From contig LFCR01000004.1 of the NCBI GenBank assembly GCA_001189215.1, positions 95,391 to 159,390 on the forward strand: DNA of 64,000 nt. Direction: 5' to 3'. Under the pieces are notes generated by a model, which was not told the origin of the DNA, searched no databases, and was given only the letters and a program-made list of their open reading frames with translations. Shown here one piece after another: positions 1 to 38,675 of the stretch (within the stretch, counting starts at the first letter, position 1; each line of letters begins with the position of its first letter). This DNA comes from Parcubacteria bacterium C7867-008 (GTDB lineage: Bacteria > Patescibacteriota > Minisyncoccia > Phycocordibacterales > Phycocordibacteraceae). Position numbers and translations under genes: made by a program.

Positions 1-1785
1 ATCAAGCATGTTATTGATCCTATAACAGGTCACGAACAGACGGATCCTAAACATAAGAACAAAATCGTTGCCGTTGTGGAGCACGAAGGAAAGGTACTCA
101 CCATAAAGTGGCCAGAGGAACTTGGTGGAAGGTTGTTGGTAGGAGGTACTGCTGAAGAAGGTGAGGATCCTGCGGTGACTGCTGCACGTGAGATTCTTGA
201 GGAGACAGGCTACGCCGATCTTGAACTTGTTGAACAAGCACAGGAACAGGTCCATCATTCATACTTCGCCTTCTCAAAGAACCAAGCAACGATTGCCCAT
301 ACGACTCTTCTCCATTTCAGGCTCAGGAGTAACAGGATGGAGGAAACACAGCTTGAAGCTGATGAGATTGGTAAATTTACGGTTGAATGGGTTACTCCTG
401 ACGTTGCCCGCAAGGAGATACATGATGACCAGCATCAATACACGCTTGCACGATTCACTAACTACAGTGCCTATACCGGAAACGGTACACTCTCAAACTC
501 GGGTAGCTTCACCGGTCGTGATAACCGCGAAGCAATGGCAGACATTATTGAAGCAGTGGGTGGAGAGGTACGAACTAATTATCGTATTCGAGACTGGTTA
601 GTATCTCGTCAGCGCTATTGGGGTTGCCCAATACCAATTGTCTATGACCCAGAAGGAAACCCTCATGCCGTTCCGGCAGAGCATCTTCCCTGGACCCTTC
701 CAACAGATGTAGATTCTGATTCAGGAAAGGGCCAGTCTCCACTCAAAGCATCTAAGGAGCTTGCTGCTCGTGTAGAACAGATCTTCGGAGAAGGGTGGAC
801 TCCCGAATGTGACACCCTCGATGTGTTTGTAGATTCTTCTTGGTACTTCCTCCGATACTTGGATCCAAAAGATGAGCACGACTTTTCAAATCAGAGTCTA
901 ATGAAGAAGTGGCTTCCTGTAAATCGATACTCAGGTGGTAGCGAGCACACCACCGTACACCTACTCTACGCACGCTTCTTCTACAAAGCCCTCTACGATC
1001 TTGGTCTTGTTCCAACTTCCGAACCATTTTATGAGCGATTTAATCGTGGTCTCGTTCTAGACTCTGAGGGCCGCAAGATGAGCAAGCGTTGGGGTAACGT
1101 AGTGAACCCCGATGAGATGGTTAAGCTTTATGGTGCTGATGCGGTGCGTATGTACCTCGCATTTATGGGTCCATACAACGAAGCTGGCCACTATCCATGG
1201 AAACTTACCGGCGTAGAAGCAATGCGCAAGTTCTTGGACCGTATCGTAAGTCTTTCTGGACGTCTTTCTGATGAAGAACCATCTGAAGCCACGCTTCGAG
1301 TACTTGCTAAAGCAATTGATAAGGTTGGTACCGATATAACTCGCTTTAAGTACAATACAGCCATCTCAGGCTTAATGGTTCTCGTGAATGAGCTCGAGGC
1401 ACTTTCAGCCGTGCCTCGTAGGGCATATCATGATTTAATATCGCTTCTTGCTCCCTTTGCACCACACGTTGCTGAATATCTATACGAGAATGCTCTTCTG
1501 ACCAGTTCTCATGCAGGAGCAGTTGAAACAATCGAGATACCTAAGAGCGTGCATGAACTTGAGTGGCCGTTGGTTGATGAATCGCTTCTAACCACCGAAA
1601 CCATCATCATGGGAGTACAAATTGCCGGAAAACGACGTGGAGAAGTGTCTCTTAGTCTTGAAGCAACCGAAGAAGAGGCGGTTGCAGCCGCCCTTAGCCA
1701 GCCCGATGTCGCCAAGTTCCTAGAAGGGGGTACTCCAAGCCGGGTTATCTATGTTCCAGGACGAATCCTGAACCTAATACCCTAG
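1..1785 (+). CDS. leuS: leucyl-tRNA synthetase, 5'-truncated by window edge; carries an embedded Nudix-box segment
   Basis: Frame 1 is open from nt 1 (ORF track starts at GTG 76). RDWLVSRQRYWGCPIP motif at about nt 586-630, KMSKR at about nt 1078, conserved LeuRS C-terminus. Canonical Nudix box GX5EX7REUXEEXGU (GTAEEGEDPAVTAAREILEETGY) at nt 145-213. Confidence 0.85.
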   Translation: MKHVIDPITGHEQTDPKHKNKIVAVVEHEGKVLTIKWPEELGGRLLVGGTAEEGEDPAVTAAREILEETGYADLELVEQAQEQVHHSYFAFSKNQATIAHTTLLHFRLRSNRMEETQLEADEIGKFTVEWVTPDVARKEIHDDQHQYTLARFTNYSAYTGNGTLSNSGSFTGRDNREAMADIIEAVGGEVRTNYRIRDWLVSRQRYWGCPIPIVYDPEGNPHAVPAEHLPWTLPTDVDSDSGKGQSPLKASKELAARVEQIFGEGWTPECDTLDVFVDSSWYFLRYLDPKDEHDFSNQSLMKKWLPVNRYSGGSEHTTVHLLYARFFYKALYDLGLVPTSEPFYERFNRGLVLDSEGRKMSKRWGNVVNPDEMVKLYGADAVRMYLAFMGPYNEAGHYPWKLTGVEAMRKFLDRIVSLSGRLSDEEPSEATLRVLAKAIDKVGTDITRFKYNTAISGLMVLVNELEALSAVPRRAYHDLISLLAPFAPHVAEYLYENALLTSSHAGAVETIEIPKSVHELEWPLVDESLLTTETIIMGVQIAGKRRGEVSLSLEATEEEAVAAALSQPDVAKFLEGGTPSRVIYVPGRILNLIP

Positions 1786-38246: not shown

Positions 38247-38675
38247 GTGTCCATGACTGAAAAACAGAAGGTAGTTGTCTATGTCGTTAAAGACGGAAAG
38301 CTTCTCGTTTTCCGGCACACTGATTTCTCATACGAAGAAGTAGGAATTCAAGTACCAGCTGGAACAATTAAGGAAGGAGAAGATCCAGAATCCGCTGCAC
38401 TACGCGAACTGCACGAGGAAACAGGCCGCGACGGTTTCAGGATTGTTGAAAAGCTTGGAGTGGAAACGTACCACAAGATGCCCGAGAAGCCTGAAACACA
38501 TGTCAGGCACTTCTTCCTGGCCGAATCGATAACCTCTCATCCTGAGCGATGGTTAAGCCAGGAGCTTCATGACGGGGAGCAGGAACCTACAAACTTCGAA
38601 TGCTTCTGGATCCCGTTAGACCGGGGTCATATCCTAGAATCTGGACTCGGAGCATTGTTGCATAAGGTCGTATAG
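38247..38675 (+). CDS. cassette-encoded Nudix hydrolase
   Basis: Nudix box GTIKEGEDPESAALRELHEETGR (GX5EX7REUXEEXGU). Its stop codon TAG overlaps the first G of R3. Confidence 0.8.
   Translation: MSMTEKQKVVVYVVKDGKLLVFRHTDFSYEEVGIQVPAGTIKEGEDPESAALRELHEETGRDGFRIVEKLGVETYHKMPEKPETHVRHFFLAESITSHPERWLSQELHDGEQEPTNFECFWIPLDRGHILESGLGALLHKVV

Follow-up and report, generated by a model that had tools for sequence, protein, structure and literature searches.

A Nudix hydrolase domain embedded in the CP1 editing domain of a Parcubacteria leucyl-tRNA synthetase

A leucyl-tRNA synthetase gene with an additional enzyme domain

The window analysed here, 64,000 nt of contig LFCR01000004.1 (assembly GCA_001189215.1) from Parcubacteria bacterium C7867-008, opens inside leuS, the gene for leucyl-tRNA synthetase (LeuRS). 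The product of this gene combines in one polypeptide the Rossmann core with its HIGH and KMSKS motifs, an intact CP1 editing domain, a Nudix domain, and anticodon-binding and C-terminal domains. Frame 1 of the forward strand runs from nt 1 without a stop codon as far as the TAG at 1783-1785 and encodes 594 residues that are 100% identical to residues 372-965 of P0121, a protein of 965 amino acids named 'leucyl-tRNA synthetase [Parcubacteria bacterium C7867-008]'. Window nt 1 is nt 1114 of the gene, which places the start of leuS 1113 nt upstream of the window.

A first-pass annotation of the window had picked out a Nudix signature at nt 145-213 of leuS. The signature is exact and lies in a complete domain, recognized by Pfam NUDIX (PF00293) at window residues 23-149 (profile positions 8-131 of 134; E 9.3e-13, 48.8 bits against a gathering cut-off of 21.1), a match well above anything that chance would give. 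As had also been proposed, the domain is embedded in frame just before the LeuRS motif RxRDWxxSRQRYWG. The features of this part of the gene are given below; residue conservation is taken from alignment A1, which comprises 112 full-length Nudix-bearing LeuRS homologues, and from alignments A2 and A3, in which K93, E122 and W130 are columns K87, E116 and W124 in insert numbering.

1..1785, + strand: 3' part of leuS, residues 372-965 of 965 plus the stop codon (open frame, TIGR00396, identity to P0121)
1..18, + strand: last CP1 strand ahead of the insertion, IKHVID, equivalent to IKKVIE of Thermus thermophilus LeuRS, which ends at residue 363 (1H3N alignment; DSSP strand 376-381 in the AlphaFold model)
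19..468, + strand: inserted Nudix hydrolase domain, 150 residues, P0121 378-527, window residues 7-156
145..213, + strand: Nudix box GTAEEGEDPAVTAAREILEETGY, window residues 49-71, an exact fit to GX5EX7REUXEEXGU (sequence; kept in the family)
277..390, + strand: family-invariant residues outside the box, K93 (277-279), E122 (364-366) and W130 (388-390) (alignments A2 and A3)
469..573, + strand: C-terminal CP1 remainder after the insertion, the last 35 CP1 residues, AYTGNGTLSNSGSFTGRDNREAMADIIEAVGGEVR (PF13603 positions 151-183 of 185; aligns from T. thermophilus residue 376)
583..636, + strand: post-CP1 catalytic-core motif RIRDWLVSRQRYWGCPIP, window residues 195-212 (sequence; A1 invariants R568, D569, W570 and R574-G579)
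1075..1089, + strand: KMSKS-type loop, KMSKR (1H3N alignment)
1294..1671, + strand: anticodon-binding domain (PF08264, window residues 432-557, E 4e-13)

P0121 is best explained as the housekeeping LeuRS, bacterial in type, of an uncultured member of the Paceibacteria (Parcubacteria, candidate phyla radiation). The bacterial LeuRS model TIGR00396 (leuS_bact) scores 841 bits on the full protein against a cut-off of 548.4; on the window fragment it matches residues 155-593 at 343 bits, the lower score arising because the fragment is truncated. Pfam divides the full protein into five regions: tRNA-synt_1 (15-219), the editing domain PF13603 (222-386), NUDIX (394-520), the rest of the catalytic core (PF00133, window residues 196-392) and the anticodon-binding domain. 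The HIGH motif is at P0121 residues 51-54, upstream of the window, and both HIGH and KMSK are invariant in A1. The KMSKS loop itself reads KMSKRWGN in the window protein and in a sibling genome, where the family consensus is KMSKSKGN.

In most bacterial LeuRSs, although not universally, a leucine-specific domain precedes the KMSKS loop. P0121 lacks it: the alignment to T. thermophilus LeuRS (1H3N) jumps from P0121 residue 725 (T. thermophilus 579) to residue 730 (T. thermophilus 637), so that T. thermophilus residues 580-636 (about 57 residues, forming this domain in the T. thermophilus and Escherichia coli enzymes) have no counterpart. Just a few residues, LDSEGR, stand before KMSK (window ~1060-1090).

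The editing domain is interrupted, not replaced

The first-pass annotation saw only the 3' part of the gene and suggested that the Nudix domain stands in place of CP1 or its editing function. The upstream part of the gene contradicts this. It holds the body of the LeuRS editing domain (PF13603, P0121 residues 222-386, profile positions 1-150 of 185, E 4e-57), and the remainder of CP1 resumes after the insertion. The editing motifs are invariant or nearly so, with T260, T261, R262, T265, H357, D358, R360 and D361 present in 112/112 sequences of A1 and D264 in 111/112. CP1 is thus interrupted by the Nudix domain and not replaced by it.

In the alignment to 1H3N, P0121 residues 8-377 correspond to T. 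thermophilus 6-363 and residues 528-725 to T. thermophilus 376-579. The 150-residue Nudix domain therefore takes the place only of a 12-residue loop (T. thermophilus 364-375), which is peripheral and close to the C-terminal end of CP1. The counter-case considered at first pass, an intact CP1 in which the Nudix-like segment aligns to ordinary CP1 sequence, holds in its first half and fails in its second, because CP1 is intact and the Nudix segment has no match in ordinary CP1 sequence. A published study of a LeuRS CP1 hairpin concerns a different loop from the one that carries the Nudix domain (PMC4138327). Given this preserved architecture, the enzyme is predicted to retain both aminoacylation and post-transfer editing.

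The Nudix domain is conserved and confidently modelled

The Nudix box is well retained across A1. G420, E435, E438, E439 and G441 are each present in 112/112 sequences, R434 in 109/112 and E426 in 104/112. Among the invariant residues outside the box, E122 is a candidate for a further ligand, either of the metal or in catalysis. An aromatic pair, Y88/F89 (nt 262-267), is found 17-18 residues past the box, and the Y88 position is occupied by tyrosine or phenylalanine family-wide. A tyrosine about 17 residues downstream of the box reportedly marks the subfamily of Ap(n)A hydrolases (enzymes acting on diadenosine polyphosphates), a marker attributed to Dunn et al. 1999 that is weak and not specific.

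Across the insert the proportion of non-synonymous differences (pN) is 0.15-0.25 and that of synonymous differences (pS) 0.77-0.91; because synonymous sites are saturated in all available pairs, these values state just that pN is well below pS and yield no dN/dS ratio. Together with motif conservation, the low pN implies that both catalytic centres, that of the synthetase and that of the Nudix domain, appear to be under purifying selection.

We modelled full-length P0121 with AlphaFold2 using the 112-sequence alignment, obtaining a mean predicted local distance difference test score (pLDDT) of 89.3 and a predicted template modelling score (pTM) of 0.81. The best structural matches of the model are E. 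coli LeuRS-tRNA complexes, with a template modelling (TM) score of 0.83 for the aminoacylation state. The insert adopts the alpha/beta/alpha Nudix fold. The pLDDT is 93-97 over the Nudix domain and both of its junctions, and a flexible linker between Nudix and CP1 is therefore not predicted. These features point to a second, autonomous metal-dependent active site that would cleave a nucleoside-diphosphate-linked compound.

The architecture is shared by related bacteria

The open reading frame (ORF) of 965 residues recurs in identical form in three independent assemblies, namely the NCBI metagenome-assembled genome (MAG), a contig from a JGI metagenome and a Logan assembly made from another run, and the two remaining forward frames contain stop codons throughout nt 1-2400. 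GC content is uniform across leuS (0.46-0.49); the absence of a GC anomaly along the gene led us to reject the idea that the insert is recent foreign DNA.

A scan of GTDB with one genome per species returned 31 related loci, 16 of which (L001-L013, L015, L016 and L022) match the Nudix part of the query. Their labels are Paceibacterota, Paceibacteria, Kaiserbacteria, Parcubacteria and Patescibacteria, with some records labelled Saccharibacteria. At 12 of the 16 (L001-L011 and L013) the match falls within a single complete ORF of ~940-990 residues, which adds 12 further species-level MAG loci with one ORF. The others comprise L016, with an ORF of 1119 residues, two loci that end at a contig edge, and L022, with a short ORF. 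When the 594-residue fragment was used as the query, all of the best 120 clusters (90% identity) except two short fragments contained PF00293 together with LeuRS domains. The Nudix-in-LeuRS design is thus common to more than 100 related bacteria. Patescibacteria LeuRSs without the Nudix domain are ~795-820 residues long.

A phmmer search with the insert alone against 1.84 billion representative proteins gave 136 matches at E <= 1e-3. Of these, ~90 also match LeuRS segments, ~40 consist of Nudix alone, as short proteins or fragments, and a handful are multidomain proteins of other kinds. This distribution indicates that the insert is a member of a small Nudix family found mainly inside LeuRS. 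The window also encodes a free-standing Nudix protein at 38247-38675 (+ strand; 142 residues, canonical box GTIKEGEDPESAALRELHEETGR), as the first-pass annotation had reported. It is only distantly related to the insert, at 36% identity over 61 residues around the box, and we reject this gene as the source of the insert.

Two further loci carry unusual versions of the arrangement. In the 926-residue Paceibacterota LeuRS of L021 (4486-7263), a far more divergent Nudix domain (Pfam E 2e-12), whose box ends ...RELQEELELD, occupies the same CP1 site. It may have been acquired independently, or it may belong to an old type that has diverged. L022 (2706-3605) is a free-standing ORF of ~300 residues with a CP1-like domain and a Nudix domain of the insert family. 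Its editing motifs are degenerate (YTDRPEV and AHNDDD), the locus has a GC content of 25%, and it has two in-frame TGA codons, one of them at a family-invariant tryptophan, which suggests either that UGA is read as tryptophan in that MAG or that the ORF is a pseudogene.

The gene neighbourhood has one recurrent member. A DUF5671 gene lies directly upstream of leuS at most related loci (L033, L034, L035, L001-L005 and others), and is uninformative because it is found at loci both with and without the insert. In the window genome (L032 3890-5962, upstream of the window) DUF5671 is preceded by a 349-residue 2H phosphoesterase-like gene (LigT/CPDase-like), an arrangement confined to the two closest genomes. 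In P0357, which is not a LeuRS, two Nudix domains of the insert family are joined to a 2H 'Swiss Army Knife' domain.

LeuRS accepts Nudix and other hydrolase domains at several sites

We mapped the Nudix sites in LeuRS with local hidden Markov models for LeuRS segments and found three. Site A is between the N-terminal catalytic half and CP1 and holds one copy or a tandem pair; site B, the one occupied in the window protein, is inside CP1; site C is in the C-terminal catalytic half, roughly at the usual place of the leucine-specific domain (the position is approximate). A single LeuRS can contain up to three copies (P0245 and P0248). Two or three copies, some with degenerate boxes, are found in P0245, P0248, P0255, P0258, P0265, P0285, P0307, P0343 and P0344.

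Some copies carry a variant box, GG.xExGQTxEEAAx[A/M/T]EIxEETGY, in which the glutamate of GX5E is replaced by glutamine together with replacement of the arginine of 'RE' by alanine, methionine or threonine, while the EE pair is kept. Members are P0267, P0268, P0270, P0271, P0296, P0302 and P0306, and L013 (6001-6795). These copies may be catalytically altered or inactive, and they suggest that canonical catalysis is not always required.

Other hydrolases are inserted at the same or neighbouring sites in the LeuRSs of relatives, namely a Ham1/ITPase domain (P0315), a HAD phosphatase (P0304 and P0368) and a PF06821 serine hydrolase (P0342, P0319, P0324 and L016 4384-7740). P0352 carries both Nudix and histidine phosphatase (His_Phos_1) inserts, the domain pair of mycobacterial MutT1. 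It has tRNA-synt_1 and DUF5915 and is without the LeuRS editing domain, and is probably a different class I synthetase, IleRS.

CP1 and Nudix evolve as an exchangeable block

The insert does not track the rest of the protein. Pairwise identities of insert and LeuRS body correlate poorly (r = 0.27), there are at least four insert types that are ~29% identical to one another, and in 32/112 proteins the nearest LeuRS body has another insert type. The window protein and its counterpart in the sibling genome C7867-007 share 90% identity in the body and 64% in the insert; for a more distant relative the values are 76% in the body and 84% in the insert. Cassette-like behaviour is likewise noted for window 19-468 against L005.

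The clearest case is the pair P0179 and P0222 (L034 3700-4740 versus L035), on contigs from different samples. Their DNA is 96-100% identical at the two ends of the gene and in the 3 kb that flank it on either side, and falls to ~50% identity over ~1 kb that corresponds to residues ~234-580, the entire CP1 and Nudix block. This pattern indicates that the CP1-Nudix module was replaced by recombination.

The nearest structural relatives of the insert act on polyphosphate-bridged nucleotides or RNA ends

The closest structures and profiles of the insert are small monomeric Nudix enzymes for polyphosphate-bridged nucleotides or RNA 5' ends. They include the Aquifex Ap4A hydrolase 3I7U (TM 0.72-0.80), T. 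thermophilus Ap6A hydrolase Ndx1 and Mycobacterium tuberculosis Rv2985, together with Mycobacterium smegmatis MutT1, RppH, BdRppH, AvrM14, oomycete decapping effectors, DIPP/DDP1, NudB and NudI. Identity to the Ap4A and Ap6A hydrolase structures is 15-21%. Substrates of the Ap4A type would be compatible with these fold matches.

The subfamily models are less informative. The best subfamily score, for NudB (NF006961, dihydroneopterin triphosphate diphosphatase), is 27.3 bits against a cut-off of 103. The RppH models (PRK00714) give 19.7 bits against 116, with weak matches in 17/19 family members, and MutT (TIGR00586/NF008044) gives 13.7 bits against 148 on the window fragment (E 0.042), with weak matches in 4-5/19. 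Among NCBIfam models of the Ap4A type, none scores above its cut-off, and the insert is not assigned to the Ap(n)A hydrolases of the NUDT2/IalA/Ap4A type. Since the profile searches do not discriminate and no equivalog comes near its cut-off, homology does not assign the substrate class.

A bifunctional synthetase and competing explanations

At a shade under even chances, we favour a bifunctional LeuRS that has an autonomous Nudix nucleotide pyrophosphohydrolase inside a peripheral CP1 loop. The LeuRS would charge and edit, and the embedded Nudix domain would hydrolyse nucleotides at a separate active site. The leading candidate substrates would be dinucleoside polyphosphates (Ap(n)N) produced by aminoacyl-tRNA synthetases, non-canonical or damaged nucleoside triphosphates, or equivalent RNA 5' ends or caps. 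The outcome would be a 'charging plus nucleotide house-cleaning' enzyme in which the hydrolase is co-expressed with, and positioned beside, the site that handles ATP, the aminoacyl-adenylate and the tRNA acceptor end.

A house-cleaning or Ap(n)N-directed activity is favoured because of the nearest structural relatives of the insert, because relatives carry Ham1, HAD and histidine phosphatase inserts, and because synthetases make, and Nudix enzymes cleave, Ap3-5N. Aminoacyl-tRNA synthetases are an established source of Ap3-5N, and RppH/NudH, MutT1 and NUDT2 are established asymmetric Ap4A hydrolases of the Nudix type (PMC7705103).

Several observations weigh against this explanation. No Nudix subfamily NCBIfam model comes near its cut-off for the insert. 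The variant box, found in ~13% of the family, most copies being canonical, sits poorly with a required hydrolase. The insert family is nearly confined to LeuRS among synthetases, which generic house-cleaning leaves unexplained, and LeuRS is, to our knowledge, outside the strong Ap4A producers. Finally, strains exchange the CP1-Nudix block, which also diversifies more rapidly than the rest of LeuRS, a pattern that fits modules involved in conflict better than housekeeping enzymes. The near-restriction to LeuRS, the clustering of insertion sites at CP1 and the swapping and diversification of the block make a role at RNA ends or in conflict a possible alternative.

The best-surviving rival, which we nevertheless judge unlikely, sees the substrate of the Nudix domain in tRNA(Leu) or in other RNA delivered by LeuRS. 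The domain would then be a module for repairing tRNA or countering toxins, mounted next to the domain in which the acceptor end is handled. Its targets might be a 5' triphosphate, an Np(n)N or NAD cap, a 5'-adenylate, or a pyrophosphate or ADP-ribose-type lesion. RppH, BdRppH, AvrM14, the oomycete decapping effectors and DIPP are among the top fold and profile matches, although many enzymes of free nucleotides appear in the same matches. The three insertion sites flank CP1, sit in it or sit in the C-terminal catalytic half, which would place them on the acceptor-end side. The insert family is essentially LeuRS-specific, and the swapping of CP1 and Nudix among strains otherwise 96-100% identical in DNA, with insert types ~29% identical, is a conflict-type pattern. 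The 2H phosphoesterase domain that P0357 joins to two Nudix domains of the family is associated with RNA repair. Against an RNA-end role, modified or capped tRNA(Leu) is not known from these organisms, the Ham1, HAD and histidine phosphatase co-inserts of relatives act on small molecules, and a conserved gene neighbour for RNA repair is absent, DUF5671 occurring also at loci that have no Nudix domain.

Distinctly less probable is a structural role, in which the Nudix domain would be a rigid extension of CP1 that binds or positions tRNA(Leu) or orients CP1, perhaps offsetting the missing leucine-specific domain, and in which hydrolysis would be dispensable. The junctions with CP1 contain no low-confidence linker (pLDDT 93-96), the leucine-specific domain is indeed absent, and boxes altered to GQ...[AMT]E are present in some copies of multi-Nudix LeuRSs as well as in ~10/68 site-B representatives. 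Some Nudix proteins, CF Im25 among them, bind RNA or Ap4A but are catalytically inactive (PMC7705103), and Mycoplasma mobile LeuRS is reported to work without a leucine-specific domain (PMC3643597). On the other side, all metal-binding glutamates of the box are kept in the window protein and in ~87% of relatives, with 'EE' in 112/112, a retention that is difficult to account for unless the domain catalyses a reaction or at least binds metal and nucleotide. The length of the Nudix-less Patescibacteria LeuRSs (~795-820 residues) suggests that these too lack the leucine-specific domain, and if so the Nudix domain is not needed to compensate for it. The canonical box of the window protein makes such a role less likely in its case.

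A broader interpretation, to which we likewise give little weight, would take the CP1 region of Paceibacteria as a docking platform for interchangeable hydrolases (one to three Nudix domains, Ham1, HAD or a serine hydrolase), with CP1 and Nudix forming a recombining, fast-diversifying cassette under conflict-type selection. The Nudix domain would then protect or repair tRNA(Leu) or LeuRS when phages, hosts or competitors deploy toxins based on nucleotides or modify tRNA ends.

We consider it highly improbable that the Nudix domain has taken over editing, either by replacing CP1 or by hydrolysing misactivated aminoacyl-AMP. Only the position beside the editing domain speaks for it. Replacement is contradicted by the complete CP1 with its invariant catalytic motifs. 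As for hydrolysis, an aminoacyl-adenylate is an acyl-phosphate and not a nucleoside diphosphate linked to another moiety; aminoacyl-AMP is not a typical Nudix substrate, and we know of no Nudix enzyme that uses it. An artefact, whether chimeric assembly, frameshift or two adjacent genes read as one, as the first-pass annotation had allowed, has practically no chance of being correct and is rejected, given the same ORF in three assemblies, the closed alternative forward frames, single ORFs in independent assemblies, the same architecture in more than 110 clusters (90% identity) from MAGs of Paceibacteria type, uniform GC content and confidently modelled junctions.

Aminoacyl-tRNA synthetases are among the most conserved enzymes, and catalytic domains added inside their bacterial cores are rare. 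Here a whole clade of the candidate phyla radiation has an apparently active nucleotide pyrophosphatase built into the editing domain of a synthetase that is essential. Should the Nudix domain break down Ap(n)N or similar nucleotides, an alarmone maker would be physically coupled with an alarmone destroyer, the first such case of which we are aware; should tRNA ends be its substrate, the result would be a novel form of quality control for tRNA; and if the docking-platform interpretation is true, it would amount to synthetase-embedded immunity or repair of a kind undescribed for any aminoacyl-tRNA synthetase. P0121 also provides a defined protein with which to ask how very small genomes pack functions into essential proteins, and the family is a natural experiment in what the CP1 domain of LeuRS tolerates.

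Comparison with known systems

The source records name these proteins 'leucine--tRNA ligase' or 'class I tRNA ligase family protein', and with such plain names the second active site goes unreported. Full-text literature searches found no LeuRS-Nudix protein or any other Nudix-bearing aminoacyl-tRNA synthetase, in agreement with the first-pass impression that the combination is undescribed. The component families are known; their combination, multiplicity and cassette-like evolution appear not to have been described.

P0121 resembles bacterial LeuRS (TIGR00396; T. thermophilus 1H3N and 2BYT, E. coli 4AQ7 and 5OMW) in its core, its HIGH and KMSK motifs, the CP1 motifs TTRPDT and HDxRD, and its anticodon-binding and C-terminal domains. 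It differs in having a 150-residue Nudix domain in place of a 12-residue CP1 loop and in being without the leucine-specific domain. The naturally reduced LeuRS of Mycoplasma mobile (3ZIU) has, unlike P0121, no CP1 domain. It is reported to share with P0121 the lack of a leucine-specific domain, in place of which it has a tetrapeptide (PMC3643597). The M. mobile enzyme is a precedent for the tolerance of bacterial LeuRS to large modular change, with the difference that modules have been lost there, whereas P0121 keeps CP1 and gains an enzyme domain.

The small monomeric Nudix hydrolases (3I7U, Ndx1, E. coli RppH/NudH, NudB, NudI and Enterococcus faecalis 2AZW) share 14-24% identity with the insert, and unlike them the Nudix domain of P0121 is embedded in another enzyme. 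Mycobacterial MutT1/Rv2985, a hydrolase of 8-oxo-(d)GTP and diadenosine polyphosphates, has a Nudix domain that is among the closest fold matches to the insert; it is a free-standing protein of two domains (Nudix and histidine phosphatase), whereas the window LeuRS carries Nudix alone. NCBIfam was found to hold no model for a LeuRS with a Nudix domain. It does hold NF040702, ileS_w_GNAT, treated by NCBI as an 'exception' family, which is likewise a class Ia synthetase with an extra, unrelated enzyme domain and which differs from P0121 in being an IleRS and not a LeuRS, and in carrying a GNAT domain and not a Nudix domain.

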